DNA of 64,000 nt. Origin: Nemertoderma westbladi. Taxonomy: Eukaryota > Animalia > Xenacoelomorpha. Location: the NCBI GenBank assembly GCA_032718475.1, contig JAUCBJ010004906.1:1-64000 (forward strand), given 5' to 3'. The notes beneath the pieces were generated by a model. The model worked only from the letters and a program-made list of their open reading frames with translations. It did not search any database and was not told where the DNA came from. A program made the position numbers and the translations under genes. Positions 10,031-64,000 of the stretch are shown here, piece by piece. Within the stretch, counting starts at the first letter, position 1. Each line of letters opens with the position of its first letter.

Positions 10031-11068
10031 TCGACTAAACTCGAACTCTAGAATACGAACAGTTAGTAAACATAATCACTAATGATTTATACTTCATATT
10101 ATTTTAAGGTGCTTCTGAGTTAAACAATAATTTGAATATGGGAAAATGTTCGCAATTTAAAACTAAATGATAATATTAACAACCTCTTTCTGTTTTCAAT
10201 CCTTGTTTCATAATTATCTTCCTATACTACTTCAATGTATTGGGGTTGAACGCGGTTGAGTATTGGCTGAACTGCACTAGCTGTGCTATTATTATAAAAT
10301 AAAACATTAATTATGAGAAAACAATTTCAATTAATTGTTTTAATTTAATAATTTAATTTAAATGTAAATTTTGATTTAATTTTCCAATTTGAACTCTACA
10401 TATCTTTATGTCTTAACAGCCGTTTTTCATTATTTTAACCAAAAAGATTTAACTCAACTTTAAATAATTATTATTATTAGTACAATTAATATATAAATAA
10501 ATCAACAATATCAAAACTCGTGGGCAGAAAATTGTGATTAAATGTCTTCCATTATATTTTAATCTTAAATTTAATTGATAATAATTTAACACTACCATTT
10601 TTTATAAGCTCCTAAATATCATTTTGTTTGTGTTAAACTATAAATGGTAGGCTATTTAATTTGTATTAGTATATGCAGCTGGCCGATATATTTTCTTTTC
10701 GAAGAAGATGAGATTACTGCTATTTTAGTAATAAATATTTTTTAATAATTGTTTAAATAATATTGAACTGTTTAAAATTGATCCATCAGCTAACTGTACA
10801 TTTCTATTTTATATTTTAATTAAATTCCCTAAACTTTTGATAATTAACATACAAACATACTTGCCGCAGCATTCCGATGTTATTTGCGTCGATGTTCCCC
10901 AAGAAAGCCCCCCCCCCCCCCCCCCGATTCCGAGTGATATGTTACACAAACGAACGTAGCGAGTGAAAATAAAGCCACGTGCATTAGAACACTCTAAAGT
11001 ACTTTCCAACAAACATGTTCGGTATTTAGTTTTATCCCAAAATTGTAACATTACGAGTACGAAATTGA

Positions 11069-11333
11069 GATAGGGGGGAAACTGGACGCAAATCCCATCT
11101 TGTCGAATTCATATCCCGCCTCAATGTTAAATTTTCAATTTAGTGAAATAAGAGCAGGTTAGAGTGACACGTTATTTTAACCAAAACAATAAACTAAACA
11201 CAATAGAACAGGTTACAGTTTTATTTTTTAGAGTAATCAGCTGTTATTTGCGTCGAATTAATTTCCCCTGGAGAGGGAAGAATTTTTATTGCGTCCAGTT
11301 TACCCCCCCCCCCCCCCCCCCCCCCCCCCATCT
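11069..11333. mobile_element. MITE family with poly-G/poly-C containing TIRs (copy 1)
   Basis: AGATAGGGGGG..ACTGGACGCAA / TTGCGTCCAGT..(C)n ATCT termini; body shared with 17572-17819 and 40791-41059. Confidence 0.75.
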
Positions 11334-11526
11334 GCAGATTCGATACAGTAAAACAACGTATTAATGTTAACCATTTTGACATAATATTTCTTTCATTCAG
11401 TCAGACGTTATCGCAAATTGTAGCGTTTACTTTTGTCAATACTGTACAATCTGCTATTTGGTGTTGGTTAATACTTTAATTTATTAGTAATAAATAACAG
11501 GGTTTGTTTGTGAGATTCTACTCTGT

Positions 11527-11998
11527 CTGATTGTGGCCACTTAATATAAAAAAATTGTGTCACTTTAAAAGGTACAAGCTCACCCGAGCTGAGCCAAGGT
11601 GATTCAATCACACCCGCGGTGAGCCAGGCTCACCGCTCACCGAACTATATGTCGAGATCAAAATGAGCAATTTCGAACCCTCACTGGAGGGAAATTCAAG
11701 TACATCAAGTAACAGTCTGATAGTACTTTCAATATGTACAGTAGGCCCTATGTTTAACAAGCCTAGGCCTATATATTTTTAGCCTTCCATAATAGTCTTT
11801 AAATTTTGATATTGGTACATGCAGACATGGACTCTAGCAGCCCGCCTACACCTACCACGCTACCAGTCTCCCTTTGACAGACCACAGACATAATCCCTTG
11901 ACATCTAGCTCACCGGCGGTGAGCCAGGCTTACCCGTCCACGGTGAGCTTGGAGCTTTAAAGTGAAACGATTTTTTATATTAAAGTGGCCACATTCAG
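11527..11998. mobile_element. MITE with long imperfect TIRs upstream of TELO2
   Basis: CTGATTGTGGCCACTTAATATAAAAAA..TCACTTTAAA..AAGCTCACC mirrored at 11942-11998; internal GGTGAGCCAGGCT repeats. Confidence 0.75.
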
Positions 11999-12333
11999 CC
12001 ACCATACAATTCCATTATTCAAATTCAGTTTTATTGTAAAGTTACAGTTAAGAGCTGTAAAGTATATTTTACTTCGCTACTTAATGTAAAACTGTGGTGT
12101 GTGTTGTCCTCTAGAGTTATACTTGTTATACTGAGTTATTATTGGTTATTTAGTGACATAAAAATCGCTTTTAATACTTGCGGCTTTAAATAAAGTTACT
12201 ATTTTGGAATAAATAACTGCATTTTAATAACTGCAACCAAAATAGTAATTAGTTGTCTCTAAGTTGTCAGGCTGTCAGGCGGTCAGGTTGTTGTAATTGT
12301 TATATTTCCATCGAATAGATATTCTCTCGTACA

Positions 12334-17851: not shown

Positions 17852-17970
17852 AGCGGAACTCTGTAGTTCCAACACATTCACAGTGTGTAGAACTGGGTAG
17901 CAGCGGAACTCTGTAGTTCCAACACATTCACAGTGTGTAGAACTGGGTAGCAGCGGAACTCTGTAGTTCC
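17852..17970 (-). repeat. 50-bp tandem repeat (2.4 copies) spanning the unc-79 stop codon
   Basis: AGCGGAACTCTGTAGTTCCAACACATTCACAGTGTGTAGAACTGGGTAGC repeated exactly. Confidence 0.9.
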
Positions 17971-18184
17971 ACCGTACCAATACGGAACTGAATCCGTTTC
18001 AGACAGGTTAGCAGCACCTGTTTGGGGTCGGAGTCCACCTTATTGATTCGAGGGGGAGATGAGTTGAGAAGGGATTGTAGTCTCAGTTGGAGACCTCCAG
18101 CGAGCTTGGATTGGTTGCTATAGAGAATCGGTTGCCATAGCGGCAATAGGAGGGTGAGAGCGGACGAGCTGCATTCATGTAATC
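17928..18184 (-). CDS. unc-79: UNC-79 last exon ([19 protein letters not shown]...[10 protein letters not shown])
   Basis: TTGTAG|GA acceptor; UNC79-like C-terminus and stop. Confidence 0.88.
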
Positions 18185-21100
18185 CTACAAAATAGTAAAA
18201 TTTAATTGAATTTATAATAATATTTATTTTCCATTACACTTAGCAAATGTAACTTACATTCTATTACACTTAGTAAATGTAACTTACCTTCCATTACACT
18301 TAGTAAATGTAACTTACCTTCCATTACACTTAGTAAATGTAACTTACCTTCCATTACACTTAGTAAATGTAACTTACCTTCCATTACACTTAGTAAATGT
18401 AACTTACCTTCCATTACACTTAGTAAATGTAACTTACCTTCCATTACACTTAGTAAATGTAACTTACCTTCCATTACACTTAGTAAATGTAACTTACCTT
18501 CCATTACACTTAGTAAATGTAACTTACCTTCCATTACACTTAGTAAATGTAACTTACCTTCCATTACACTTAGTAAATGTAACTTACCTTCCATTACACT
18601 TAGTAAATGTAACTTACCTTCCATTACACTTAGTAAATGTAACTTACCTTCCATTACACTTAGTAAATGTAACTTACCTTCCATTACACTTAGTAAATGT
18701 AACTTACCTTCCATTACACTTAGTAAATGTAACTTACCTTCCATTACACTTAGTAAATGTAACTTACCTTCCATTACACTTAGTAAATGTAACTTACCTT
18801 CCATTACACTTAGTAAATGTAACTTACCTTCCATTACACTTAGTAAATGTAACTTACCTTCCATTACACTTAGTAAATGTAACTTACCTTCCATTACACT
18901 TAGTAAATGTAACTTACCTTCCATTACACTTAGTAAATGTAACTTACCTTCCATTACACTTAGTAAATGTAACTTACCTTCCATTACACTTAGTAAATGT
19001 AACTTACCTTCCATTACACTTAGTAAATGTAACTTACCTTCCATTACACTTAGTAAATGTAACTTACCTTCCATTACACTTAGTAAATGTAACTTACCTT
19101 CCATTACACTTAGTAAATGTAACTTACCTTCCATTACACTTAGTAAATGTAACTTACCTTCCATTACACTTAGTAAATGTAACTTACCTTCCATTACACT
19201 TAGTAAATGTAACTTACCTTCCATTACACTTAGTAAATGTAACTTACCTTCCATTACACTTAGTAAATGTAACTTACCTTCCATTACACTTAGTAAATGT
19301 AACTTACCTTCCATTACACTTAGTAAATGTAACTTACCTTCCATTACACTTAGTAAATGTAACTTACCTTCCATTACACTTAGTAAATGTAACTTACCTT
19401 CCATTACACTTAGTAAATGTAACTTACCTTCCATTACACTTAGTAAATGTAACTTACCTTCCATTACACTTAGTAAATGTAACTTACCTTCCATTACACT
19501 TAGTAAATGTAACTTCGCTTCCTTTGTCGCAGACCCATCTTTATTGAAGGACAGTAGATGAAGGATATTGGGTATGATCCGTCCCCAGAATTCCAACATA
19601 GCAACGTTGCCATGGTAACATTCGTCCACGTTGGAACTAGATGAAGCTGATTGCATTGCCATGCCAACACGCTCGCAATAAATGGTCCAAAGTTGGCAGG
19701 CCATGAAGGCCTGGTAGAGACTAGACATGTGTATCACGGTGAACTTGGATTGGTCTGCAGTTCCAGCCAGAATAACCTAAAGTTCAAACATAAATATTGG
19801 GAGTCAATCTTAGTGACAACGACATCAACAGTTGTTACTGAATTAAACATATAGTTTTATTTCTTTCTCTTTCTTTTTTATCTCTTCAATGTATAAAAAG
19901 TGAGTGATAATTATTGTATGATCAATAAGATTAACCACTAACCTGTACATATTCAGCGATATTGGAGCCCATATCCAGGGGGATGGGCTGACATAGCATA
20001 TCGTTATCCGTCGACATGGCGTAATGGAACAGACTCCCCATAAGCAACCACACGAGGACGCGGATGTGGCTGATACAGTCGAGGAGCTCCCGAGGGCTCT
20101 GCTGGATGGCTGGGGTAGAGCTGATCCAGGGTAGATAGCGGGTTAGGGTGCGACTACCCATACGGGTCAGCTCTAGGGACACGATCTGGGCGATTCCAGA
20201 CTTCAGTTGGCCACCCAGAGTATCTTCGTTTAAATTGTAACCAGTTTGACTCTTTATATTCGCTTTGACCTGGAATATAACAAGAAAATGGAATGAATGA
20301 TTGAGCAAGTTGTTTGTTTATCTCAAATATTATCAAATTTTACTAAATGTACGCACGAGAGGGGGGGGGGGGTCTATTATCTTGTGGTACTGCATATTGT
20401 GTTGGGTTCAGCCAACGTTGGGGACGCTAAAGAGCAACAAAAATGTACATTTTGAAATTTTTTTTGTCTCCCTCTACCGAGCGGAGGAATTAAATATTTC
20501 ACTAAAAACGTGTGTTCGGTGTTAATCGGTTAGCAATGCTTGGCACTATGGATTCATAACCACTCACTAAAATTATCAATATGGGGGTTTTCGGTGTCGG
20601 TGAATTTAATTCCTGGTCAGTTTTAATATTTGGTGGTAACTAATATGTCTGTTTGACGGTTTGTCTGTCTGACTGTCTTCTAAATTATGGCGGACAAACT
20701 GGTAGACAGATAGACAGCGATAACTCGAGAACTAAAAAAATATATCGCTTAGCCGTTTTAAGATTTGTTTAAGTTTCTAAATTCTGCATCAGATGAAATA
20801 AACAACAAAACATGTAAAAATGTGAAAATTTAACCCCCAGGATGTGATAATCTCCCCCCCCCCCCCCCCCCTAAACAAATACACTCTCTTAATTAACTCC
20901 ACGCTTGTTTGTATTGTCACATTTTATCATCCTCGTGGCTTTATTATCTCTCACTTTCTAACTTTGTTTCAGTTTAACCCCTACTAGTTGGAAAGAATTT
21001 AGTTTCAATTTAAAACAATCTACTATAATTGTTCTAAATAATTTAGTTTCAGTTTAACACAATCTAATATGTAGTTGGAAGAACTTAGTATCTGTTAGGA

Positions 21101-24100
21101 ACCATCTATTATGCCATTAAAATAATAACTCACCTTGGTAGCGGCGTGGGGATCGGTAATAAAGTCGATGAGTTCACTGAGGAAGCTCTGTATGCAATCG
21201 GAAGCGTTGGTCTGACTTCCGTACTGACTCGATACATTAAACGATTCGTCCACGATCTCGGACAACGGAAGTCGCCCGCCGCTGTCGAGACAAACGAACT
21301 GAACCATCGCCATTAAGTTTACGTCCGACGGTGTCGTTTTAAATCGCAACGCGTTCACCAGTTCGAGTACGACGCAGCGAGCGAGATGACTCTTCTCGCG
21401 ATCGCGAGGGAACCCGTGGAAGGAGAGGATGCAGACATCGACGAGGGATTGGAGGGAGAATCGGGACCGCTGGATGAACCCGGCGAGGAGTTTCCCGCAA
21501 GGTTCGAGTAGACAACGGAGGCTGGAGGAGGAGGAAGGAACCCGGAAGAGAACGATTAGGATACGCATGACGTTGGTAGTCGAGAGAACATAGTCGAGAG
21601 CCGTGAGGAGCTTCCGGAAGAACGTGTCGAAGTGGCTGACAAGACCACTGAAAGGAGTTCCGCACTCGATGTGGATGGCCTCCATATAATCCGCAGTGTT
21701 CGACAATATTAGGGAAAGTTCGTAGGAAGGTAGGGATTTCTTGTCGTTTAAATCTTCAAGTAAAATATATAGGGGATCAAGGGTAGAGAGTTCTGGGAAG
21801 TCCAGGAGACATTGGGCCAACGTGGACCAGAAATCCGGCTCGTCTAGGCGACTCTGGAAGAGCAACGGAACGATTCCGTACGGGACGAGGCGATGTATCG
21901 CGCAGCGGACGAACTGCCGCGCGACATTCTGCGCGGTCGCCGGGGTGTGACTGCGACTCTCGTGCTGGAAGTTGTAGGTGGGATGTGCGGCGACCCTCGC
22001 AACGGCCTGGAGGGCGTCAAGCATGTAGGGAGCGGCGAGTCCGGGATCCCGATGGACGAACATCCCGAGAACCACGATGGTGAGTCCCACCGTCTCGTCG
22101 TCGTACTGCTCGATGAGTCCGCGGCACTCGGGACAACGCTCGCCTAGCAACGACACGTCGTCTGTAGCCAACTCCTCCTCCTGGAACCGCGCCGACATGC
22201 TGTACACGCTGCTGTGCCGACTCGAGGACTGACTGCTCTTCCTACTGGACGGGACCGACAGCAGTGTCCCTACGGACCCCGCGGCTGAACCGCGTTCGTA
22301 GGAGCGCGCCGCGTTGCTCACCCCCTGTCGACGCTGTCGGTACCGCTGTCGGAATTTGTGGGCGGCGCCCTCCTGTCCGACGCCGATCTTGCCGACCCCC
22401 GGATCCCCGTCCTCCCCTCCCGACTCCATATCGTCGCTACTCCGACTCGCGGACATCCCGATCGGCCGGCGTTCCCGGTCGCTTGTCGCCCCGGAATCTT
22501 CTGTCGACGTCGACTTCTGGGCGCGACTTAGAGTCGGCGAGGAGCTCCGTTTAATCGGCGAAGGCTCCGCAGTTTCGAAATCATCCAGACTCAACAACGG
22601 CGTCGGTTCTAACGGCCTCACTTCCAACGAGTTCTTTGGAAACCGCTCGCTTCGCTCCTTGTCAGTCTCCTCGCTACACCCCGCATCTCCGGTGAGCGGA
22701 CGACCAACCTTATCGGATCGAGAATCGACTCGCTGAATGAAACTCGATGAGGCGTACCACGGTGTCTCGCTAGCGACGGCGAACGGCGTCGCCTTGCCAA
22801 CCGTCGGTTCGCTAACCGCCTTCACGCAGCCCACCGACAACGGGACAAGCGTCTCCTCGGTAAGACATCCCGCTTCTTCCGAGAGACCTCGAGAATCCTT
22901 CAAAAGGCGACGGGACTCATCAGAAACGCTGGACTCCTCTGGGAGACTACGAGACTTCTCGGGGAAGTGCTCCGAACGACGAGAGAGGCGACGGGATTCC
23001 TCCGGGAAGCGTTTCGGATCTTCCGGGAAGCGAACCCTCGGCAACTCTTTGACGGGGACGAGACACACGGTATCCTCATCCTCGTCCCACTCGACGCAGC
23101 TGTCCCGATCCGTCGTGGAATCCAACCCGCGGTACGAGTAGGACGGCGACGAGTTACTCGAGTCCTCCTCCACGGAAAACGGGAGCACCGTCTCGGTAAC
23201 AGTGGCAACCTCGTAGCGCACCGAGTCCGCGAACAGCGGTTCCAACATCTCGACGCGTTCGTTCGCCGGCATATCGTCCGCCCCGGCGATCGTGCACTGC
23301 GCCACGTGGCACACAGACTGGTCCAGGATGGAACGCGACGGTGTCGACACTCCGATGTGTCCGGATATCGCGCCTGTACGTCCGGATATCGGGCCCGGGT
23401 GTCCGGACACCACGCACGAGGTGACGCCGAACACGGGCTGCACGGATGCGACCTCGTCAACCAATGACTGGGTCCCGCGTACATCCCGGGTGGTTACGAT
23501 GCTGGACCGAGCGGCTACGGCGGTCCCCTGGACGGCCACCGCTCGGTACAGATCGTCCGTCGATCGCTCCGTCCTAATCGACACGGGTTTCTTACGTTTG
23601 TGGACCCCAACTTGTACACGGCCGCTCCCCGCCATGCTGACCACGGTGGACTGCTGGTCTCGCGATCCCGCAGTCGACGCCGGCGGCAGTGCTGCTCTCC
23701 TATTGGTTACTTCGGATTGGGTCTCAACGCTTCCTGATTTTATATCGCCGGCTGAAACTGAAGACTTGATATCATCTCTCTTCCCATCCAATGGGTTATC
23801 TAAATAACAATTAATTAATTAATATATTCACATTAATTGAATATCCCAATAATGCAGCATACATTTTGGTCAAAGCAAACTAAGATGCCATTAAATCCAG
23901 TAAAATATAAACAGCCATTTAAAATAGTAATTAATACAACAAAATTAATTTAACATAAAACAACAAATAAAATAATTAATTAATGAAACAATCACTAATT
24001 AACCAAACAATCACATTTACCTGGTTCACTTTCCGCCCCTCTATAATCGGTTCGGGAATGAATTCGCTTCGACGAAGCTCCAACATGTCGAAACATTTTC

Positions 24101-27100
24101 TTTGATGAAATCTGTGCAAAATAAATTCATAATATCAAAAATATCTCACCCAGTTGGCCTCACAACACGGTTATATTTAAATGCATTAGTAACCCAGGGT
24201 TTAGTTAAAGTCATTAGTAACCCGGCGCCAGGGACAGACATTATTAACCTCGCAGGTCTAACATAGACTATAAACTCTACTTTACTATAATTTTTTACTT
24301 TTATCAAGTATTCCGCTTTCATACATACATGGGATTTCATTTTCCTACCATCTTCCACGTCAAGAACATCATCATCTGTTGTTATTCCCTCACCACCTGT
24401 GGCCTCTGCCACGCTCTCAAAGTCCTCCTCCTCAATGGGTACTGCTCCGAAGTCTTTAGATATAGTTCTGTAATAATAATCACGGTTTTAAATGATAGCA
24501 CACGTCACAGCATTGATACACTATTAGTACTATTATTAGTATATTATTATATTATTAGTACTATTAGCACTATTAGTACTACAAACAAACTGTAGAGATG
24601 ATCACTTAGTACAAACATGGACATGGATGGGCTGGTGGGGAGAATTGGACTCACAGGTCTGTAGAGATGATCACTAAGTACCAACCTGGACATGGATGGG
24701 CTGGTGGGGAGAATTGGACTCACTGGTCTGTAGAGATGATCACTAAGTACCAACCTGGACATGGATGGGCTGGTGGGGAGAATTGGACTCAGTGGTCTGT
24801 AGAGATGATCACTAAGTACCAACCTGGACATGGATGGGCTGGTAGGGAGAATTGGACTCGCTGGCATGTAGAGATGATCACTTTACACAAACCTGACATG
24901 GACGGGCTGGTAGGGAGAATTGGACTCGCTGGTCTGTAGAGATGATCACTAAGTACCAACCTGGACATGGATGGGCTGGTAGGGAGAATTTGACTCGCTG
25001 GCATGTAGAGATGATCACTTTACACAAACCTGACATGGACGGGCTGGTAGGGAGAATTGGACTCGCTGGTCTGTAGAGATGATCACTAAGTACCAACCTG
25101 GACATGGACGGGATGGTAGGGAGAATTGGACTCGCTGGTCTGTAGAGATGATCACTAAGTACCAACCTGGACATGGATGGGCTGGTAGGGAGAATTGGAC
25201 TCACTGGTCTGTAGAGATGATCACTAAGTACCAACATGGACATGGACGGGATGGTAGGGAGAATTGGACTCGCTGGTCTGTAGAGATGATCACTAAGTAC
25301 CAACCTGGACATGGATGGGCTGGTAGGGAGAATTGGACTCACTGGTCTGTAGAGATGATCACTAAGTACCAACCTGGACATGGATGGGCTGGTAGGGAGA
25401 ATTGGACTCACTGGTCTGTAGAGATGATCACTAAGTACCAACCTGGACATGGATGGGCTGGTAGGGAGAATTTGACTCGCTGGCATGTAGAGATGATCAC
25501 TTTACACAAACCTGACATGGACGGGCTGGTAGGGAGAATTGGACTCGCTGGTCTGTAGAGATGATAACTTTACACAAACCTGACATGGACGGGCTGGTAG
25601 GGAGAATTGGACTCGCTGGTCTGTAGAGATGATCACTAAGTACCAACCTGGACATGGATGGGCTGGTAGGGAGAATTGGACTCGCTGGTCTGTAGAGATG
25701 ATCACTAAGTACCAACCTGGGCATGGATGGGCTGGTAGGGAGAATTGGACTCGCTGGTCTGTAGAGATGATCACTAAGTACCAACCTGGACGTGGACATG
25801 GATGGGCTGGTAGGGAGAATTGGACTCGCTGGTCTGTAGAGATGATCACTTAGTACAAACCTGGACATGGATGGGCTGGTGGGGAGAATTGGACTTGCTG
25901 GTCTGTAGAGATGATCACTAAGTACCAACCTGGACATTGATGGGCTGGTAGGGAGAATTGGACTCGCTGGTCAGTAGAGATGATCACTAAGTACCAACCT
26001 GGACATGGATGGGCTGGTAGGGAGAATTGGACTCGCTTGTCTGTAGAGATGATCACTAAGTACCAACCTGGACATGGATGGGCTGGTAGGGAGAATTGGA
26101 CTCGCTGGTCAGTAGAGATGATCACTAAGTACCAACCTGGACATGGACGGACTGGTAGGGAGAATTGGACTCGCTGGTCTGTAGAGATGATCACTTAGTA
26201 CAAACCTGGACATGGATGGGCTGGTGGGGAGAATTGGACTCGCTGGTCTGTAAAGATGATCACTTAGACGACATCGGTGGTTTTGAGCTTCAACAGTGTT
26301 CAACACTATTTGTATTAAGGATTCAACTGTTTTAGAAGTCGTTACAACGTCCAGTCTGTATTTGTACAATATCACCAGAAGACTTAGCAGCCATTGAGTT
26401 CTAAACGTGAGAAATTCATAGTATAAAAGCTGTCCAAAACCAACGGCCATGGCATCGCGCTATCTATATATAATCGGCATGGCGATTGGCAGCTGTTTTA
26501 AGAAATGCTAGAGGGCGGTCTATCTATAAAATTGTAGCTTTCGCAAAGGTTATCAGCATATTCAACGGTAGTTTTAATACTAGGCGCCTTGAGAATGTTT
26601 ATTGGGTTGTCCACCATGCTGATTCACTCCATGAGAAGTGAATAAGCACGAGATGAGCAAAGGGTGGTCGTCATAGCAAGACATGCTCTTTACATATTCA
26701 CATGCCCAAAATGGAGTGGGGCGACATTCACACATAAAATATGGCATTGTGACACTCCCAAATACAATGCAGTGACGAGTAACTGTTCAGGTACAACCTC
26801 TAAGGAAACCCTATGGATGGCTGCTTACCTCATGTACGTAGGTAGAAGACGCAATGTGTAATCGGGTTTCCGACACTCTCCCATAAGCGGTTGGGGAGAG
26901 GGTGAATATTGTAAGACCTCGAGTGTAATGTGCATCAGTTGGGTTCCCATACGGACATTGTGGTCGAAGACGCGGGGCAGACCGGCGATGAATGCGTTGA
27001 ATATGGTGTTAGTTCGGAGGTTCGCTGGGGTAATATGGAAACATTTGTCGTACTGTTGGTAACCTGTGAGATAAAGTAGACGTGGAAACATTTGTCGTAC

Positions 27101-54100: not shown

Positions 54101-56677
54101 AGTACGATCACTATAAATAAACCAGTGAGTTGTTGTCTAATATAATAAATTGGTATATAATATAATTACCCACCTGTCTACATGAGACATATCCAATGAC
54201 TGCGCAGTACCAGAGGCTGTCTGTGGTACCGGTACACCTGTGCCATCAGCTAACGGGTTGTTCACTGTCAGGTGATTCCCAGAGAACATTCGGTTAGTAA
54301 ACTCATCCAACGAATGCGCTTTCTGTTTTTCGTTGCTAAAGAGACTGTAAATAATAAACAGTATTAAATAAAAATATCGAGAGAAGATTTATACCTTTTA
54401 ATGCCACTCACCAAGTCCGTTTGTAATATAAACTGTTAGGTTCAATCTTGGTGTAGTGGTTGCATTGAATTCACATCTCCCGTAGAGATCGTGGGTTCGA
54501 CCCCGGCATGGGGGACGTCAGTTTTCTTTTCAGCACGAATGCTTTGAAAGGACCAGCCAGGGCGCTATGCTCTGCCTTGCATCCGTAAGTGGTAGCTAAC
54601 AGAGTACTGGAGATTCCTCTGGGGAGTATAGTTCTGGAGGGACCGCACTGGAAATAAGTTAGCAGAATTTGTGCGTAATCCCTGATCTTAACAGCACTGA
54701 CTATAATAAAACTATAGTTTCTTACTTTACTTTAAGCTAACAACATACACGATTACTATATATACCGGTGTGTTTCATACTGATGTAGAGGTACGGTGCC
54801 CTAGTGCCGTAGTGTCAGTAACTTACCCTCACACGGCTGTGTCTGTAACTTACCCACACACAGCTGTGTCTGTAACTTACCCACACACAGTAGTGTCAGT
54901 AACTTACCCACACACAGCTGTGTCTGTAACTTACCCGCACACAGCTGTGTCAGTAACTTACCCACACACAACTGTGTCTGTAACTTACCCACACACAGTA
55001 GTGTCAGTAACTTACCCACAAACAGCTGTGTCAGTAACCTACCCACCCACAGTTGTGTCTGTAACTTACCCACACACAGTTGTGTCTGTAACTTACCCAC
55101 ACACAGCTGTGTCTGTAACTTACCCACCCACAGTTGTGTCTGTAACTTACCCACACACAGTTGTGTCTGTAACTTACCCACACACAACTGTGTCTGTAAC
55201 TTACCCGCACACAGCTGTGTCAGTAACTTACCCACACACAACTGTGTCTGTAACTTACCCACCCACAGTTGTGTCTGTAACTTACCCACACACAGTTGTG
55301 TCTGTAACTTACCCACACACAGCTGTGTCTGTAACTTACCCACACACAGCTGTGTCTGTAACTTACCCACACACAGTAGTGTCAGTAACTTACCCACACA
55401 CAACTGTGTCTGTAACTTACCCACACACAGTTGTGTCAGTAACTTACCCACAAACAGCTGTGTCAGTAACCTACCCACCCACAGTTGTGTCTGTAACTTA
55501 CCCACACACAGTTGTGTCTGTAACTTACCCACCCACAGTTGTGTCTGTAACTTACCCACACACAGTTGTGTCTGTAACTTACCCACACACAACTGTGTCT
55601 GTAACTTACCCGCACACAGCTGTGTCAGTAACTTACCCACACACAACTGTGTCTGTAACTTACCCACCCACAGTTGTGTCTGTAACTTACCCACACACAG
55701 TAGTGTCAGTAACTTACCAACACACAGCTTGTGTCAGTAACTTACCCACACACAGCTGTATCTTTAACTTACCCGCACACAGTAGTGTCAGTAACTTACC
55801 CACACACAGCTTGTGTCAGTAACTTACCCACACACAGTTGTGTCTGTAACTTACCCACACACAGCTTGTGTCAGTAACTTACCCACACACAGTTGTGTCT
55901 GTAACTTACCCACACACAGCTGTGTCTGTAACTTACCCACACATGGCTATGTCTGTAACTTACCCACACACAGATGTGTCTGTAACTTACCCACACACAG
56001 CTGTGTCTGTAACTTACCCACACACAGCAGTGTCTGTAACTTACCCACACACAGCTGTGTCCCCAGCCTGTCTCATTAGGTACGGATCAGCAGTAACAGC
56101 GTTCGCTGACGCCGGCGACGATACTCCTCTACGGAACGGAAGTCTTCCAACGAACTCCGCTCTAAGTGACCGGACGCTCTGAGTTCGGGATCTGTGGACG
56201 AGAAGTTAACAAGGATTTATTGTGTTAAAACAATAAACAGAGTTTATCAGATACTAATATTAGCTATAAACAGACACCATGTAACTATAAACACTATACA
56301 AATAATTAATATAGAACGCCAAAAGTAATGACTCTATTAAAAAATTTCGAAAAATCCCAAAGAGTCTGAAAACTTGAGAGAGAAGAATAATAATAGTAAT
56401 TATAGTTCTTGTGATAATTTATAGTTATATATATATATTTTACTAAGTTAGTTTTAAGTATTTTATAGTGTATACCGGTACTTATTTCATTTAATATTCT
56501 ACAATAACACTAGGTCTGTGTCTCACCTGGCGAACTTTGCTCTTCGGAGTTTCTTGGCTAGCACCTCATTCATTCCTAAAACGGCGGCGTTGAAGTTGGA
56601 CGTTGCTGTCGGAAAGAAACAGTCCCGGTTGTTCTCGAAATCCAGATGGGACTCCAAGGAAAGCGTGTCGAAACGAC
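17928..56677 (-). CDS. unc-79: UNC-79 (NALCN channel complex subunit), 3' portion; spliced model of 12 exons: 56677-56527, 56191-56045, 54344-54174, 53248-53115, 27063-26829, 26400-26206, 24467-24329, 24111-24021, 23799-21134, 20269-19943, 19776-19488, 18184-17928; 5' exons lie beyond the window
   Basis: All introns are GT-AG and all exon phases chain without frameshift (4802 nt). Recalled UNC79 motifs appear in order: [98 protein letters not shown]-terminal [10 protein letters not shown]. Confidence 0.9.
18226..19515 (-). repeat. 30-bp splice-donor-spanning tandem array, ~43 copies
   Basis: Unit TACATTTACTAAGTGTAATGGAAG|GTAAGT = end of exon 19488-19776 plus donor; near-perfect homogeneity. 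Confidence 0.97.
19488..19776 (-). CDS. unc-79: UNC-79 penultimate exon ([35 protein letters not shown]...LHLLSVME)
   Basis: TTAG|GTT acceptor; first donor GAAG|GTAAGT; unique part of ORF 18202..19737. Confidence 0.88.
19943..20269 (-). CDS. unc-79: UNC-79 exon ([25 protein letters not shown]...IAEYVQ)
   Basis: ORF 19931..20308; CAG|GTC acceptor, CAG|GTTAGT donor. Confidence 0.88.
21134..23799 (-). CDS. unc-79: UNC-79 large exon (2666 nt; low-complexity linker then conserved C-terminal region)
   Basis: ORF 21095..23791; TTTAG|AT acceptor, AAG|GTGAGT donor; [38 protein letters not shown] motif. Confidence 0.9.
24021..24111 (-). CDS. unc-79: UNC-79 exon ([11 protein letters not shown]...GAESEP)
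   Basis: CACAG|A acceptor, CAG|GTAAAT donor, phase 0-1 bridges neighbours. Confidence 0.7.
24329..24467 (-). CDS. unc-79: UNC-79 exon ([17 protein letters not shown]...KMKSH)
   Basis: TACAG|A acceptor, CAT|GTATGT donor, phase 2-0. Confidence 0.7.
24590..26267 (-). repeat. 69/70-bp splice-donor-spanning tandem array, ~24 copies
   Basis: Unit = last ~60 nt of exon 26206-26400 plus CAG|GTT(T/G)GTAC. Confidence 0.95.
26206..26400 (-). CDS. unc-79: UNC-79 exon ([15 protein letters not shown]...PTSPSMSR)
   Basis: TTTAG|A acceptor; first donor CAG|GTTTGT; within ORF 26109..26450. Confidence 0.8.
26829..27063 (-). CDS. unc-79: UNC-79 exon ([30 protein letters not shown]...[11 protein letters not shown])
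   Basis: Non-repetitive tail of ORF 26825..30706; CACAG|GT acceptor, GAG|GTAAGC donor. Confidence 0.85.
27035..30918 (-). repeat. 47-bp splice-acceptor-spanning tandem array, ~82 copies
   Basis: Unit TCTACTTTATCTCACAG|GTTACCAACAGTACGACAAATGTTT(A/C)CAC = acceptor plus start of exon 26829-27063. Confidence 0.97.
31712..33929 (-). mobile_element. 5'-truncated SINE with internally amplified 36-bp array (~59 copies)
   Basis: Both array flanks match, in reverse orientation, the flanks of 43682-44792 (ACTGGG.GCAAA.CTTGGGA.AGGAGTAGCG and GAAAGAGGAGCCTTCGGGTCG). Confidence 0.85.
35754..36370. mobile_element. Non-autonomous DNA transposon/MITE downstream of furin
   Basis: 21-bp perfect inverted repeat CAGCCATGTCCACATTTTGTC / GACAAAATGTGGACATGGCTG; exact ends uncertain. 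Confidence 0.65.
36560..39993 (-). CDS. FURIN: Furin-type proprotein convertase, 3 coding exons (39993-39292, 38874-38515, 37870-36560; ~790 aa)
   Basis: Signal peptide; RRVKR prodomain site; catalytic D (ILDDG), H (RHGTRCAG), oxyanion N (ASGNGG), S (HTGTSASAP); P domain, Cys-rich region, TM helix, YTQL and acidic cluster tail; both introns phase 0 GT-AG. Confidence 0.93.
37927..38547 (-). repeat. 44-bp splice-donor-spanning tandem array in furin intron 2, 14 copies
   Basis: Unit TACAGTAGCGGGAACGCTACAGAACGGAAG|GT(A/C)AGTGTTCCACC = end of exon 2 plus donor. Confidence 0.97.
39051..39245. mobile_element. CAC-terminated MITE (EnSpm/CACTA-like) in furin intron 1
   Basis: TIR CACTGAAAAAACG / CGTTTTTTCAGTG flanked by TA on both sides. 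Confidence 0.75.
40791..41059. mobile_element. Poly-G/poly-C TIR MITE (copy 3)
   Basis: Body closely similar to 11069-11333. Confidence 0.75.
42142..43065 (-). CDS. HMCES: Abasic-site processing protein HMCES (SRAP domain), single exon
   Basis: MCGR catalytic N-terminus, [40 protein letters not shown]-terminal PIP-like MASWL. Confidence 0.95.
   Translation of the reverse strand: MCGRTVCTLTKGGVQQACTYQCPDNSTGLPTWYNGTGDYQPSYNMAPTTTGAVLVAERVYSHLSGEDGTGTGTYSRCLVPMRWGLIPAWHRGPPAEFKLNTTNCRSESLLDKPLFRNPFSQKKRCAFVIDGYYEWKVLDKSKKQAYLIHNPHESKCDSFAASLQSEDATNRKITPMLLAGLYDVNNNNSTERLVSFTTITVASEGRMSDIHCRMPAVLTSEESLKCWLFSDDLNEAMTVIKATDSLEFYTVSSFVNNSRNQSADCVVEWVGNPKETPGSKRKHSAQPVSPASVGCMASWLAKSSKKL
43541..44840 (+). 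mobile_element. tRNA-headed SINE with Nin/Deu-like core and internal 36-bp array (~31 copies, 43682-44792)
   Basis: A box TAGCTCAGGTGG, B-box-like GGTTCAGCCC, core CTCAGCCTTTCATCC...GGGGTCGATAAAATGAGTACCAG, tail GAAAGAGGAGCCTTCGGGTCGCC. Confidence 0.8.
47160..47460. repeat. Degenerate ~55-65-bp tandem repeat with TCTACTACTAAC and poly-C
   Basis: About 6 recurrences of (T)CTACTACTAAC..TTAA.CCCCC. Confidence 0.6.
47736..48062 (-). mobile_element. Non-LTR retrotransposon (RTE-like) reverse transcriptase fragment with 78-bp internal duplication
   Basis: [16 protein letters not shown]...AQRLL..LEQAASS..VGL....KTKML (FADD catalytic motif); truncated on both sides. Confidence 0.8.
48413..49426 (-). 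CDS. STPG1: Sperm-tail PG-rich repeat (SHIPPO-repeat) protein, STPG1-like, single exon
   Basis: Repeated PGPG-x-Y motifs; [49 protein letters not shown]-terminal [13 protein letters not shown]. Confidence 0.85.
   Translation of the reverse strand: MSFMVDSIKPIGSMEGRRSTAPSGAVGRLYKSRPTPTARCSIPSKYRTIVTDNSDSRGFGSTARRFEDGTTSDVPGPGAYRPGSVGGPVSTKGTGSFASRGRRMPRAQRDPAPGPGCYETAGLSVRNPTRRSAGFVLPYAAPHDKVADVPGPQYNVQTCRDGGKPLAESGGAASAFRSTSKRIGFTDVTNVAPAPGHYNVKDDILHPTAKSVVSSFRSRTQRKVALDGAPGPGPAQYNPGAPIEPAKRIVLPRRHYLGISAAPVALPPTPPAPGPGAYDIATDIGGPRRGYIRGSYFVSNTERWIAPDPTEKPGPATYRPEYPEKQSFIYNATGRWL
49757..52952 (-). mobile_element. tRNA-headed SINE with internally amplified 63-bp array (~48 copies, 49773-52800)
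   Basis: Minus-strand A box TGGTCTAGTGG and B box GGTTCGACCC at 52945-52905, core CATTCACCCTTACCTACGGTCGATAAATG resembling the 43620-43650 core, running directly into the array. The array itself is certain; the SINE call is less so. Confidence 0.7.
53115..53248 (-). CDS. unc-79: UNC-79 exon ([14 protein letters not shown]...IRHLNVLLG)
   Basis: Inside ORF 53092..53307; TTTTAG|A acceptor, CTAG|GTAACC donor. Confidence 0.85.
54174..54344 (-). CDS. unc-79: UNC-79 exon ([15 protein letters not shown]...LDMSHVDR)
   Basis: TTACAG|T acceptor, CAG|GTGGGT donor, 171 nt open, phase-compatible with both neighbours. Confidence 0.75.
54445..54660 (+). mobile_element. tRNA-derived SINE
   Basis: A box TGGTGTAGTGG, B box GGGTTCGACCCC, 3' part shared with 358-398. 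Confidence 0.7.
54823..56060 (-). repeat. 27-bp splice-donor-spanning tandem array, ~46 copies
   Basis: Unit GACACAGCTGTGTGTGG|GTAAGTTACA = end of exon 56045-56191 plus donor. Confidence 0.96.
56045..56191 (-). CDS. unc-79: UNC-79 exon ([14 protein letters not shown]...GDTAVCG)
   Basis: CACAG|A acceptor, GG|GTAAGT donor, phase 2-2. Confidence 0.8.
56527..56677 (-). CDS. unc-79: UNC-79 exon ([14 protein letters not shown]...[10 protein letters not shown])
   Basis: TTCTAG|GTCG acceptor, CAG|GTGAGA donor, open frame, UNC79-like peptide. Confidence 0.85.
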
Positions 56678-56874
56678 CTAGAACAAAAGTATAATAAGCG
56701 TGTCAAAACGACCTACAACAAAAGTAAAAAATAAGCGTGTAAAGACGACCTACAACAAAAGTATAATAAGCGTGTAAAGACGACCTACAACAAAAGTATA
56801 AAATAAGCGTGTAAAGACGACCTACAACAAAAGTATAAAATAAGCGTGTAAAAACGATCACAACAAAAGTATAT
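56661..56874 (-). repeat. ~37-bp splice-acceptor-spanning array, exon-proximal part
   Basis: Unit TATACTTTTGTTGTAG|GTCGT(C/T)TT(T/G)ACACGCTT = acceptor plus start of exon 56527-56677. Confidence 0.92.
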
Positions 56875-57427
56875 GGCTCAAACTCCCAAAAAGTGGCCAA
56901 AAAAATTCATTTTTTTGTAAAAAAAAAAAAGTTTCCCAAAGTATGTAATATTATATCACCAGAAAGCTCTCGATGCGCTGAATTCAATGGTGGTAATTTC
57001 CCAATAGCCCCGACCTCCTTGTAACAAATAATTGAGAAAAACTGATGTCCATTCCTGTAACACTTGTCCCACAATGTAACGCCCGATATCAGCCAATCAG
57101 AGCCCTTGAATGGTGATTTCCAATGCCTGTAACAATTTGTCCCACCATGTAACACCAATTGTAATTACACTGATATGTTAAATTAACCTAGATTTCGTCT
57201 CCGAGTGGGAGCTTTGCAGCCATACCTGATCCCAGTAACACCTCCCAATAATAAAGCTTATTTGAAAATATAATCAATCATAATAAATCTTTATGGTTCA
57301 TATTTCTGTTTATTGCTTATTATTCTATTACTGTTTATTACTATGACTTTCTGTTTACTATTAAATTTATAACTGTTATATATCACTATAGCAGATCAGT
57401 TAGTCAAAACCCGTAAATTATCAGTTC

Positions 57428-59045
57428 ATCTCCACCCTCCACAGATCCTCCTGTACTTCCCACTCCGTCTCCCACACCCTCCACAGATCCTCCTGTACTT
57501 CCCAATCCGTCGTCCACACCCTCCACAGATCCTCCTGTACTTCCCATTCCGTCCCCCACACCCTCCACAGATCCCCCTGCACTTCCCATTCCGTCTCCCA
57601 CACACCTCCACAGATCCTCCTATACTTCCCACTCCGTCACCCACACCTTCCACAGATCCTCCTGTACTTCCCATTCCGTCTCCCACACCCTCCACAGATC
57701 CTCCTGTATATCCCACTCCGTCTCCCACACCTTCCACAGATCCTCCTGTACTTCCCATTCCGTCTCCCACACCCTCCACAGATCCTCCTGTATATCCCAC
57801 TCCGTCATCCACACCCTCCACAGATCCTCCTACACTTCCAATTCCGTCTCCCGCACACCTCCACAGATCCTCCTATACTTCCCACTCCGTCTCCCACACC
57901 CTCAACAGATCCTCCTGTACTTCCCACTCCGTCACCCACACCTTCCACAGATCCTCCTGTACTTCCCATTCCGTCTCCCACACCCTCCACAGATCCTCCT
58001 GTATATCCCACTCCGTCACCCACACCCTCCACAGATCCCCCTATACCTCTCACTCCGTCATCCACACCCTCCACAGATCCTCCTACACTTCCCATTCCGT
58101 CTCCCACACACCTCCACAGATCCTCCTATACTTCCCACTCCGTCTCCCACACCCTCCACAGATCCTCCTGCACTTCCCATTCCGTCTCCCACACCCTCCA
58201 CAGATCCTCCTGTACTTCCCATTCCGTCCCCCACACCCTCCACAGATCCTCCTGCACTTCCCATTCCGTCTCCCACACACCTCCACAGATCCTCCTATAC
58301 TTCCCACTCCGTCACCCACACCTTCCACAGATCCTCCTGTACTTCCCATTCCGTCTCCCACACCCTCCACAGATCCTCCTGTATATCCCACTCCGTCACC
58401 CACACCCTCCACAGATCCCCCTATACCTCTCACTCCGTCATCCACACCCTCCACAGATCCTCCTACACTTCCCATTCCGTCTCCCGCACACCTCCACAGA
58501 TCCTCCTATACTTCCCACTCCGTCTCCCACACCCTCAACAGATCCTACTGTACTTCCCACTCCGTCTCCCACACCCTCCACAGATCCCCCCATACCTCCC
58601 ACTCCGTCACCCACACCCTCCACAGATAATTCTGTACTTCGTATTCAGTCTCCCACACCCTCCACAGATCCTCATGTACTTCCCACTCCGTCTCCAACAC
58701 CCACCACAGACCTTCCTGTACTTCCCACTCCGTCACCCACACCCTCCACAGATCCTCTTGTACTTGCCACTCCGTCTCCCACACCCTCCACAGATCCTCC
58801 TGTATATCCCACTCCGTCACCCAGACCCTCCACAGATCCTCTTGTACTTCCCACTCCGTCTCCCACACCCTCCACAGATCCTCCTGTATATCCCACTCCG
58901 TTTCCCCACACCCTCCACAGATCATCCCATACTTCCCACTCCATCTTTCCCACCCTCCACAGATCCTCCTGAGCTTCCCACTCCGTCTCCCACATCCTCC
59001 ACAGATCCTCCTGAGCTTCCCACTCCGTCTCCCACACTCCTCTCG
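57428..59045. repeat. 42-bp C-rich tandem array inside the transposon, ~38 copies
   Basis: Unit CCTCCACAGATCCTCCTGTACTTCCCACTCCGTCTCCCACAC. Confidence 0.95.
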
Positions 59046-59412
59046 CCCCTCCGACTGCCCCCCCTTGCACCTCTACCTTTTCCCCTCTGACCTCCAACTG
59101 CTCCCCTTGCACCTCTATCTTTTTCCCTCCCACCTCTAACTGCTCCCTTCACAACTCTAACATTCTGCCCGCCCACCTCTAACACCTCTTGCACTTATAC
59201 CGCTATCCCCTGCCTCGCCACCACACCGATATATCTCACTTCTCCCTTCCTTACATCATCGGCATCCAGTATTCCATCTGATTCATCGTCTTCAATAGTT
59301 TCAATGACACCTTCCGCCCGAGACACATGGACTGCCACGCCATGCTCGATGCAGAATAGTGGACTCACTTTCTTACAAGAAATATTTATCATATTAGATA
59401 TCGCCACCCTGG

Positions 59413-59735
59413 TTATATATAATCTCGTGGGCCTTTCCAATTCCCTGGATGGGGCCTAATTATACTTGGTATTGTATCCTTTACCAGTTCCACATCATTA
59501 GCCGAGTATGAAAATATCTTGGTTTTAATTCGAGATTTCAGCATGGCAATTATGTCGTTGAAGCTAAGGGTATCGCCATCAATGTGCATGCCAATAATGT
59601 TTGACAATGTCCTCTTAATCGTTCCACCAACTCCATCCGCTGGGCCCTTCCCGTGACCGGCCTCCAAATATATCCAACGGATTTTCTTATTCGTAGCCTT
59701 AGCAACTTCATTAAATAGAAATACAATTAATAGTC
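59413..59735 (-). pseudogene. DDD/E transposase fragment (HGKGxxDGxGG motif, Sola2-like)
   Basis: KIRWIYLEAGHGKGPADGVGGTIKR in and just upstream of ORF 59413..59667; no long upstream ORF. Confidence 0.7.
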
Positions 59736-60623
59736 CTATTGCGGTTCTACTGAAGTGTTACAGGTGAGACATGTCCTACTCTGTAGCCCAAATTTATTCA
59801 ATTTACATGTTACATGTGGGATTTTTTGTGTTACAGGCTTTTGTTACAGGTGGGACAAAGCTCATGCTGATAAATGTAAAAGCAACTGACGTCTATTCCA
59901 CAGTCAATTGTTGCACAAATGATTACTCACGCAAAAGCCCAATATCTGGGCTATGTGCTGATATTAGAATCTTCATATCACGTTTGTTAGAACTGATTCT
60001 AGAGCATTGTAAAGCAATGATAATGCACTTGGTGTTACACAAGGGACAATCCTAATTGACATAATGGACTCGCACGTATAAAACCAGCCATATCTCTGGT
60101 TGTGTTTTGTATTTTTTCGTAAAATCTGGAACATTCCACTTCCCGAAGATTTTCCTTTCAAATAAGAATTTAGGTTATAGAATCCCAATAAAAACCTTTT
60201 GGTGAATTCAGGTGTTACCGTTTGGGACAAGTAATTGTCAAAAATATGGGTATATTATCTATTGTTTTATTTCAATATGATATCAATAAAACAATTTGGA
60301 AGTTATTCCATTGCATTACTCTATTATTTAGCTTTAAAATGAGCTATAACTTGTTGAAATACACCCAGTAGATGTCAAAATACATCCCCCACAATGCAAT
60401 GAACTTTTTTGGACAATTGGAAAACATGCATTTTTTAGTACTAAAAGGTCTGTAAAATCTTTCAAAGTCGGAGTGGCAGTATGACTTTTTGTGCATCTGT
60501 TGGACCTTAAAATTATCTTCAAAAATATATATAACTTTACCAGGTTCCTAAAAAAAATTTCATTCTAAAATTAAGTCGAATCGTGTGGGAAACGTTTTTG
60601 GCCACTTTTTGTGAGTTTGGGCC

Positions 60624-63600
60624 ATATAAAGCGTAACGATCTACAACAAAAGTATATAAAGCGTGTCAAAACAGCCTACAACAAAAGTATAAAATAAGTG
60701 TGTAAAAACAAACTACAACAAAAGTATAAAATAAGCGTGTAAAAACAACCTACAACAAAAATATAAAATAAGTGTGTCAAAACGATCCACAACAAAAGTA
60801 TATAAAGCGTGTCGAAACAGCCTACAACAAAAGTATAAAATAAGCGTGTAAAAACAAAACTACAACAAAAGTATAAAATAAGCGTGTAAAAACAAAACTA
60901 CAACAAAAGTATAAAATAAGCGTGTAAAAACATAACTACAACAAAAGTATAAAAAAAGCGTGTAAAAACAAAACTACAACAAAAGTATAAAATAAGCGTG
61001 TAAAAACAAAACTAAAACAAAAGTATAAAATAAGCGTGTAAAAACAAAACTACACAAGGGACAATCCTAATTGACATAATGGACTCGCACGTATAAAACC
61101 AGCCATATCTCTGGTTGTGTTTTGTATTTTTTCGTAAAATCTGGAACATTCCACTTCCCGAAGATTTTCCTTTCAAATAAGAATTTAGGTTATAGAATCC
61201 CAATAAAAACCTTTTGGTGAATTCAGGTGTTACCGTTTGGGACAAGTAATTGTCAAAAATATGGGTATATTATCTATTGTTTTATTTCAATATGATATCA
61301 ATAAAACAATTTGGAAGTTATTCCATTGCATTACTCTATTATTTAGCTTTAAAATGAGCTATAACTTGTTGAAATACACCCAGTAGATGTCAAAATACAT
61401 CCCCCACAATGCAATGAACTTTTTTGGACAATTGAAAAACATGCATTTTTTAGTACTAAAAGGTCTGTAAAATCTTTCAAAGTCGGAGTGGCAGTATGAC
61501 TTTTTGTGCATCTGTTGGACCTTAAAATTATCTTCAAAAATATATATAACTTTACCAGGTTCCTAAAAAAAATTTCATTCTAAAATTAAGTCGAATCGTG
61601 TGGGAAACGTTTTTGGCCACTTTTTGTGAGTTTGGGCCATATAAAGCGTAACGATCTACAACAAAAGTATATAAAGCGTGTCAAAACAGCCTACAACAAA
61701 AGTATAAAATAAGTGTGTAAAAACAAACTACAACAAAAGTATAAAATAAGCGTGTAAAAACAACCTACAACAAAAATATAAAATAAGTGTGTCAAAACGA
61801 TCCACAACAAAAGTATATAAAGCGTGTCGAAACAGCCTACAACAAAAGTATAAAATAAGCGTGTAAAAACAAAACTACAACAAAAGTATAAAATAAGCGT
61901 GTAAAAACAAAACTACAACAAAAGTATAAAATAAGCGTGTAAAAACAAAACTACAACAAAAGTATAAAAAAAGCGTGTAAAAACAAAACTACAACAAAAG
62001 TATAAAATAAGCGTGTAAAAACAAAACTAAAACAAAAGTATAAAATAAGCGTGTAAAAACAAAACTACAACAAAAGTATAAAATAAGCGTGTAAAAACAA
62101 AACTACAACAAAAGTATAAAATAAGCGTGTAAAAACAAAACTACAACAAAAGTATAAAATAAGCGTGTAAAAACAAAACTACAACAAAAGTATAAAATAA
62201 GCGTGTAAAAACAAACTACAACAAAAGTATAAAATAAGCGTGTAAAAACAACCTACAAAAAAAATATAAAATAAGCGTGTCAAAACGATCCACAACAAAA
62301 GTATATAAAGCGTGTCGAAACAGCCTACAACAAAAGTATAAAATAAGCGTGTAAAAACAAAACTACAACAAAAGTATAAAATAAGCGTGTAAAAACAAAA
62401 CTACAACAAAAGTATAAAATAAGCGTGTAAAAACAAAACTACAACAAAAGTATAAAAAAAGCGTGTAAAAACAAAACTACAACAAAAGTATAAAATAAGC
62501 GTGTAAAAACAAAACTAAAACAAAAGTATAAAATAAGCGTGTAAAAACAAAACTACAACAAAAGTATAAAATAAGCGTGTAAAAACAAAACTACAACAAA
62601 AGTATAAAATAAGCGTGTAAAAACAAAACTACAACAAAAGTATAAAATAAGCGTGTAAAAACAAAACTACAACAAAAGTATAAAATAAGCGTGTAAAAAC
62701 AAACTACAACAAAAGTATAAAATAAGCGTGTAAAAACAACCTACAAAAAAAATATAAAATAAGCGTGTCAAAACGATCCACAACAAAAGTATATAAAGCG
62801 TGTCGAAACAGCCTACAACAAAAGTATAAAATAAGCGTGTAAAAACAAAACTACAACAAAAGTATAAAATAAGCGTGTAAAAACAAAACTACAACAAAAG
62901 TATAAAATAAGCGTGTAAAAACAAAACTACAACAAAAGTATAAAATAAGCGTGTAAAAACAAAACTACAACAAAAGTATAAAATAAGCGTGTAAAAACAA
63001 AACTACAACAAAAGTATAAAATAAGCGTGTAAAAACAAAACTACAACAAAAGTATAAAATAAGCGTGTAAAAACAAAACAACAACAAAAGTATAAAATAA
63101 GCGTGTAAAAACAAAACTACAACAAAAGTATAAAATAAGCGTGTAAAAACAAAACTACAACAAAAGTATAAAATAAGCGTGTAAAAACAAAACTACAACA
63201 AAAGTATAAAATAAGCGTGTAACAAACAAAACTACAACAAAAGTATAAAATAAGCGTGTAAAAACAAAACTACAACAAAAGTATAAAATAAGCGTGTAAA
63301 AACAAACTACAACAAAAGTATAAAATAAGCGTGTAAAAACAACCTACAAAAAAAATATAAAATAAGCGTGTCAAAACGATCCACAACAAAAGTATATAAA
63401 GCGTGTCGAAACAGCCTACAACAAAAGTATAAAATAAGCGTGTAAAAACAAAACTACAACAAAAGTATAAAATAAGCGTGTAAAAACAAAACTACAACAA
63501 AAGTATAAAATAAGCGTGTAAAAACAAAACTACAACAAAAGTATAAAATAAGCGTGTAAAAACAAAACTACAACAAAAGTATAAAATAAGCGTGTAAAAA

Positions 63601-64000
63601 CAAAACTACAACAAAAGTATAAAATAAGCGTGTAAAAACAAAACTACAACAAAAGTATAAAATAAGCGTGTAAAAACAAAACTACAACAAAAGTATAAAA
63701 TAAGCGTGTAAAAACAAAACTACAACAAAAGTATAAAATAAGCGTGTAAAAACAAAACTACAACAAAAGTATAAAATAAGCGTGTAAAAACAAAACTACA
63801 ACAAAAGTATAAAATAAGCGTGTAAAAACAAAACTACAACAAAAGTATAAAATAAGCGTGTAAAAACAAAACTACAACAAAAGTATAAAATAAGCGTGTA
63901 AAAACAAAACTACAACAAAAGTATAAAATAAGCGTGTAAAAACAAAACTACAACAAAAGTATAAAATAAGCGTGTAAAAACAAAACTACAACAAAAGTAT
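60624..64000 (-). repeat. 38-bp satellite, distal continuation of the acceptor-spanning array, interrupted by a duplicated transposon end (61051-61638); runs off the window
   Basis: Unit AAAACAAAACTACAACAAAAGTATAAAATAAGCGTGTA, homologous to 56661-56874. Confidence 0.95.
61051..61638 (-). mobile_element. Duplicated terminal ~590 bp of the Sola-like element
   Basis: Near-identical to 60036-60623 (offset 1015 bp), including the TIR and ATAT. Confidence 0.92.

Follow-up and report, generated by a model that had tools for sequence, protein, structure and literature searches.

In a 64,000-nt stretch of the Nemertoderma westbladi contig JAUCBJ010004906.1, to which we refer as the window, we found six tandem arrays that straddle splice junctions of two genes, unc-79 and a furin-like convertase gene, for which we built minus-strand gene models. 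We have little doubt that these are six independent minisatellites of the "mirage" type, i.e. arrays built from a unit that crosses the border between exon and intron. Four of them sit at donors (units of 30, 69, 44 and 27 bp) and two at acceptors (47 and 37/38 bp), and together they occupy six of the 27 junctions mapped (23 in unc-79 and four at the two furin introns), the same count as in an initial annotation of this DNA. As to their history, we lean slightly toward an origin by slippage and unequal exchange, taken together with persistence due to an undeletable splice site and with use of the exon-proximal site in splicing.

All six arrays were recovered with Tandem Repeats Finder (TRF) where the initial annotation had placed them (Table 1). 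With head-to-tail units of 27-69 bp, 14-83 copies and lengths of 0.6-3.9 kb, they are of minisatellite scale. In six of six arrays the unit crosses the exon-intron boundary of its host on homology-supported gene models; the 27- and 69-bp donors sit in poorly conserved protein, and the placement of the boundary there rests on frame. Units were said to consist of an exon edge plus a splice signal, and indeed nearly every one keeps it: GT is found in 42 of 43 units of the 30-bp array, in all 21 units detected in the 69-bp array (TRF counts 24 copies; the search pattern missed some), in 14/14 units of the 44-bp and 46/46 of the 27-bp array, and AG in 83/83 units of the 47-bp and 73 of 78 of the 37/38-bp array. 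The longest stretch common to different units is 11 nt, namely the donor motif, and therefore the arrays have independent origins, as their description as unrelated had implied. Within the window, each unit stems from the adjacent single-copy exon and not from a transposon-borne minisatellite, and each holds one junction rather than the acceptor plus donor of a tandem exon or cassette array. For the acceptor array described earlier as a ~38-bp array, the array is real, but the unit that spans the junction belongs to the exon-proximal 37-bp block; the 38-bp blocks lie beyond a 3.8-kb inserted element, which splits what is one array. That the 69-bp array might consist of acceptors or be a stack of microexons was ruled out by frame: the acceptor-like stretch of the unit lies just 27 nt past its donor, and unit 1 continues the frame of the conserved exon.

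Is such a concentration of arrays at splice junctions expected by chance? We collapsed the arrays and placed their founder units at random, while placements wholly inside coding sequence were barred. Large arrays were defined by a unit of at least 27 bp and at least five copies; the 37/38-bp blocks were counted once, and a 14-bp array at 16125 was excluded. In this window, six of eleven large arrays span a junction compared to 0.39 expected (P 7e-7), which upholds the earlier claim of a density above uniform placement. Merging two 36-bp arrays gave six of ten (P 4e-7), restricting the positions to within 200, 500 or 1000 nt of coding sequence gave P ~1e-5, and the rate at junctions exceeded that in other non-coding DNA of the window ~31-fold. 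The initial annotation had also suggested that such repeats are tolerated only if they are spliced out. This filter does remove exonic arrays, but it leaves the ~30-fold excess over other non-coding DNA unexplained. Collapsed to one splice site, the introns at 18185-19487, 37871-38514 and 24468-26205 measure 73, 72 and 149 nt, shorter than all eight array-free introns (166-925 nt); arrays may prefer short introns or may stand in for deleted intron sequence.

The locus is present as short-read contigs in three DNA runs (X1, X2 and X3) from two samples and two studies. X1 and X2 come from one sample, which may be the source sample of the assembly, and X3, with 32 differing letters and 5 gaps in 3779 relative to the window, is another individual. 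Unique contigs end at 19486 in all three runs, where the 30-bp repeat starts; in X1 and X3 they also end at 27062, at the start of the 47-bp repeat, and the repeat contigs at both edges have tens of times the single-copy depth. The 69-bp array shows up in X1 and X2 as contigs that return on themselves after a single unit, and in X3 as elevated depth. Short-read contigs thus support the 30-, 47- and 69-bp arrays, the three of the six that were compared with them. Contig depth as a measure of copy number was rejected, the same bin at the edge of the 30-bp array reading 2344 in X1 and 420 in X2 (5.6-fold). One X1 contig of 1974 nt covers 23058-24640 as well as 26195-26620, and its offset of 1589 is exactly the distance from first to last donor of the 69-bp array; the contig may represent a one-donor allele with a 20-nt overhang, or a graph shortcut. 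A 33-bp piece of unc-79 intron (26603-26635), where contig depth is very high in runs X1, X3 and X5, is the terminus of a dispersed repeat of very high abundance. Run X5, which carries the same species label, matches the unc-79 exons (22448-24367) only as short pieces of one 2152-nt contig and may come from a diverged relative, and run X6 gave no match to the unc-79 exons.

Which of the many splice sites is used? We predict that splicing likely uses the exon-proximal site, by position rather than strength. With these sites the coding sequence should remain intact, as had been claimed: the unc-79 model joins 12 coding exons across introns that are all GT-AG into a single predicted open frame of 1596 aa with one terminal stop. 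In the 27-, 44- and 37/38-bp arrays, only the exon-proximal site preserves the frame, and in the 69-bp array only the first two of 21 detected sites do so. Of the GT sites in the 30-bp array, 41 of 42 leave the frame open, with ten residues added per unit, and 28 of 83 sites preserve it in the 47-bp array, whose commonest unit has no stop triplet. The view that the spliceosome must choose the proximal site is thus enforced by frame in three of six arrays but not in the other three. At the 30-, 44- and 47-bp joins, the homologs (P0001, furins and human UNC79) run through without inserted units. In the furin array, the proximal donor GTCAGT matches 8/11 positions and the 13 decoys GTAAGT match 9/11. 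In the 47-bp array, the distal-most copy (30913) has a branch-point-like motif and the proximal copy has none, a motif that is also absent from 5 of 11 array-free acceptors scanned. Authentic and decoy sites were similarly accessible in predicted RNA structures, i.e. decoys are not masked, and weakened decoy splice sites were looked for across the arrays and not seen. Since the proximal site is not stronger and the decoys are not hidden, position would have to decide.

How could arrays build up at these places? In the scheme toward which we lean, a 27-69-bp piece across a junction would duplicate at a short direct repeat, and unequal exchange and slippage would then shift the copy number. A neutral array could contract and vanish, whereas the smallest viable allele of a junction array would retain the flanking direct repeats, so that a seed at a junction (or a stop codon) could only stay or re-expand. 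Arrays would thereby become enriched at coding edges without splicing-linked mutagenesis, the surplus copies would leave with the intron, and the exon-proximal site would win via exon definition or 5'-to-3' scanning. Ordinary minisatellite turnover is a known process that matches both the overhangs and the maps of variant units. These maps contain repeated blocks in the 27-, 47- and 38-bp arrays, which fits unequal exchange, while 40/42 units are identical in the 30-bp array, 11/13 in the 44-bp array, and most units are unique in the 69-bp array.

On the locking mechanism itself, i.e. that a splice site between two copies cannot be lost, our judgement is evenly divided. In each of the five arrays whose two ends are visible, a direct-repeat overhang flanks the splice site: 27 nt with one mismatch in the 30-bp array, whose distal end stops in exon-derived sequence, 20 nt with one mismatch in the 69-bp array, 14 nt with two mismatches in the furin array, 5 nt in the 27-bp array, and 4 nt. 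Of 15 low-copy duplications called by TRF, none crosses a splice junction, where 0.26 would be expected (P 0.02 under a 15-fold enrichment), and seed repeats show no excess at array-free junctions (mean 5.8 nt compared to 6.7 nt at 150 control places); therefore, the bias looks like one of persistence or expansion rather than seeding. The initial annotation had listed a seventh array over the unc-79 stop codon; a repeat does lie there, of merely 2.4 copies of a 50-bp unit. A repeat on one of five stop codons, next to arrays at six of 27 junctions, fits an effect expected for any coding edge. The 1974-nt contig, finally, matches the predicted minimal allele. Low-copy duplications, seed counts, stop-codon case and one-donor contig, each taken singly, lend weak support to locking.

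Several points weigh against the scheme. Arrays with a fractional copy number give such overhangs anyway, and two overhangs have just 4-5 nt; much of the low-copy set of 15 consists of short, degenerate repeats; the stop-codon repeat is a single event; and the one-donor contig may be a shortcut of the assembly graph through similar first and last units. In a toy random walk, the excess is 1 plus the re-duplications that occur in the lifetime of a seed, and the simulation merely restates that 15-30 of these are required for a 15-30-fold excess. Splice-site use was predicted from DNA sequence, and in the 30- and 47-bp arrays selection against decoy use may be weak, because many decoy sites keep the frame. 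In addition, the window was picked because of its array pattern, and P 7e-7 multiplied by 250,000 scanned windows amounts to 0.18.

This last number leads to the question whether we observed a chance cluster in a repeat-rich genome, found by looking at very many windows. Tandem arrays make up 39% of the window, and the introns of three of the six shrink on collapse to 72-149 nt, so short that any duplication in them likely touches a junction. Still, the low P persists when positions are limited to the vicinity of coding sequence, two unrelated genes are affected, and we judge the correction for 250,000 windows harsh, as many windows cannot show the pattern; a chance cluster therefore appears decidedly improbable. 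That the arrays are artefacts of assembly is hardly credible. A 601-bp flank near 60040-61655 occurs twice, at 99.7-100% identity, and the short-read comparison covered three of the six arrays (30, 47 and 69 bp), but unique contigs break at array edges, repeat contigs of high depth lie there, contigs loop by one unit at the 69-bp array, and the structured variant maps are unlike collapse errors.

An unlikely explanation, yet one to be taken seriously, is that duplications start more often in or at exons, e.g. through recombination or repair that sets out from conserved exons and slips at places of allelic divergence, and that selection keeps the extra copies outside the coding sequence. It would be in line with two in-frame duplications in the long unc-79 exon (21 bp x2.4 and 15 bp x2.3), with the repeat across the stop codon and with base composition, exons having a guanine-plus-cytosine (GC) content of 56% compared to 36% in non-coding DNA and 46-61% in non-junction arrays. 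However, three of the six junction arrays are AT-rich (30-37% GC), the low-copy duplications avoid junctions altogether (0/15), and the allelic divergence seen in X3 is modest. A further alternative, which the initial annotation had raised with pausing, R-loops and rolling-circle amplification as examples and which also takes in breaks at splice sites, is a process coupled to splicing or transcription that makes or expands repeats at the splice sites themselves. The ~31-fold rate ratio would agree with it, as would the fact that all six arrays neither tied to a dispersed repeat nor far from genes sit at junctions, the near-purity of the 30- and 44-bp arrays, and a generating mechanism that the consulted part of PMC3087553 calls unclear. 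This proposal nevertheless gained no support and we consider it improbable. The GC skew of the coding strand ranges from -0.44 to +0.56 across the six units, which counts against R-loops and rolling-circle copying because these predict a common skew or pure arrays; three of the six arrays have block-wise variant patterns typical of unequal exchange, no excess of seeds is found at junctions, and the stop-codon repeat requires no splice site.

Tandem repeats across exon-intron boundaries were termed mirages in amphioxus globins and Adh3, and the consulted sections of that report describe units of 10-160 bp at 5' as well as 3' boundaries, undisturbed splicing, length instability and an unclear origin (PMC3087553); two mirages in amphioxus PGBD5, together with a cited troponin C case, appear in the consulted part of PMC3902484. 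The impression that such arrays had not been described before does not hold in view of these reports. As far as the same sections go, the amphioxus mirages (globins BflGb6 and BflGb9, PGBD5, Adh3 and troponin C) resemble the arrays reported here in that units span the boundary at 5' and 3' ends, most units keep AG/GT, several arrays occur per gene, and edge units differ from inner ones. Unit sizes overlap as well (10-72 bp in Adh3 compared to 27-69 bp). Copy number differs, with 14-83 and more here and 2-7 in the globin and PGBD5 mirages, and normal splicing and length instability are reported for amphioxus, whereas the present arrays are known from DNA sequence alone. In the 37-bp variable number tandem repeat (VNTR) of human F7 intron 7, according to the sections consulted, the first unit spans the donor and is followed by identical pseudo-donors, and experiments showed that only the most upstream donor is used, even over stronger pseudo-sites, as the furin gene would require; this is a single locus with 5-9 copies, a donor only, and an experimentally established splice choice (PMC1557585). 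Human CBS, in the part of the source consulted, carries a 31-bp VNTR, c.1444_1467+7(16_21), and the insertion 844ins68, in which the later of two duplicated intron/exon junctions is used; this acceptor case has two copies compared to 83 and >73 here (PMC2630376). The Rogers model, as cited in the consulted part of PMC3087553, derives intron gain from tandem duplication of AG/GT sites. Five of our six junctions read AG|GT, as is also common at array-free junctions, and duplication multiplies splice signals in both cases. The arrays differ from this model in that no new intron or exon is evident; they lengthen existing introns, each of which retains non-repeat sequence and its other splice site. 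A genome-wide mirage count was not found in the literature searched, most subscription papers being outside the search. Beyond the consulted parts of these papers, the present locus adds its copy numbers, acceptor arrays of large size and an idea, open to testing, of why junctions are favoured; the repeat class itself is known.

Five large arrays of the window touch no junction. The 36-bp array is present twice, in opposite orientation and with a common flank (the regions 31710-33950, 43540-44840 and 49771-52965 cover the 36- and 63-bp arrays). Both the 36- and the 63-bp arrays follow transfer RNA (tRNA)-like heads and look like tails of short interspersed nuclear elements; ARAGORN found no tRNA. 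A candidate seventh donor array, the 63-bp array, was rejected: the preceding GT lies inside the tRNA-like element, and the supposed exon misfits the unc-79 frame. No array of the window is larger than the one at 1453-6659 (32 bp x163, 54% GC), which is 5.7 kb, with arrays collapsed, from the nearest mapped coding sequence; GTAAGT stands ~10 nt before it on the plus strand, beside which there may be an unmapped exon. The 3.8-kb element within the 37/38-bp array bears a 42-bp array of its own (57433-59183) and is likely a DNA transposon remnant; a fragment of an open reading frame in it had no Pfam match. A near-exact duplication of ~1 kb (60040-61054 repeated from 61055) comprises one end of the element and 11 array units and may be a recent event or an assembly error.

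The identity of the unc-79 model follows from alignment of its product to human UNC79 and, across conserved joins, to the full-length homolog P0001; exons 2, 3, 7 and 8 are based on frame and splice signals only. The furin model is based on tblastn of furins, on Pfam matches (S8, pro-domain and P-domain) and on a spliced frame with one stop. The 26-kb unc-79 intron (27064-53114) houses three genes on the same strand (furin, HMCES and a sperm-tail PG-rich repeat protein gene), an unusual arrangement that may reflect a misjoin; the join across this intron is contiguous in human UNC79. A PEBP-family gene and TELO2 (both within 8531-14772), HMCES (42142-43098) and the PG-rich repeat gene (48416-49456) are each contained in a single long open frame, and the introns of furin number only two, which suggests an intron-poor genome with large, repeat-filled introns. 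Best identities in protein searches were 56-59% for furin and 36% for HMCES, with no close relative among the matches.

Table 1. Arrays, inserted element and genes mapped in the window
Feature	Position	Strand	Gene and remarks
30-bp donor array, x43, 99% pure	18229-19522	minus	unc-79; presumed used donor 19487
69-bp donor array, x24, unit of 62 nt exon + 7 nt intron	~24590-26267	minus	unc-79; presumed used donor 26205
47-bp acceptor array, x83	27039-30919	minus	unc-79; presumed used acceptor before 27063
44-bp donor array, x14	37918-38547	minus	furin; first donor 38514
27-bp donor array, x46	54812-56061	minus	unc-79; first donor 56044
37/38-bp acceptor array, exon-proximal block, x6, 35-38-bp units	56661-56871	minus	presumed used acceptor before 56677
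37/38-bp acceptor array, continuation, 38-bp units	60641-61054, 61656-64000	minus	extends past window end
3.8-kb element, 32-bp inverted ends 94% alike	56872..60630		inserted at TA in the acceptor array
50-bp unit, x2.4 (TRF)	17852..17971	minus	over unc-79 stop codon (17930-17928), not a splice junction
unc-79, 3' part	17928..56677	minus	remaining upstream exons outside window
unc-79 exons 1-4	56677-56527, 56191-56045, 54335-54174, 53248-53115	minus	frame and GT-AG introns
unc-79 exons 5-8	27063-26829, 26400-26206, 24467-24329, 24111-24021	minus	frame and GT-AG introns
unc-79 exons 9-12	23799-21134, 20269-19943, 19776-19488, 18184-17928 (stop)	minus	frame and GT-AG introns
Furin-like convertase, 3 coding exons	36557..39990: ~39990-39292, 38874-38515, 37870-36557	minus	start codon not fixed
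HMCES	~42145-43070		inside 26-kb unc-79 intron
Sperm-tail PG-rich repeat protein	~48420-49390		inside 26-kb unc-79 intron

In summary, the locus offers a simple, testable idea for how arrays build up at coding edges, for a repeat class whose origin is called unclear in the consulted part of PMC3087553. The furin donor, which must win against 13 better-matching decoys, provides a clean test locus for splice-site choice, and the 47-bp acceptor must win against 82 upstream copies, one of them with a better branch-point motif. For genome annotation, such arrays are a warning, as they produce spurious long reading frames and interrupt short-read assemblies where exons end. It is quite unlikely, but conceivable, that about one junction in five carries a mirage genome-wide, that splice sites generate or lock satellites, that the spliceosome, working from the exon side, sorts out as many as 80 identical acceptors, and that the stop-free 30- and 47-bp arrays give UNC-79 inserts that depend on repeat length. 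If such a genome-wide, junction-driven class were true, it would make this genome a natural system in which to study how mirages originate and how 3' splice sites are chosen.

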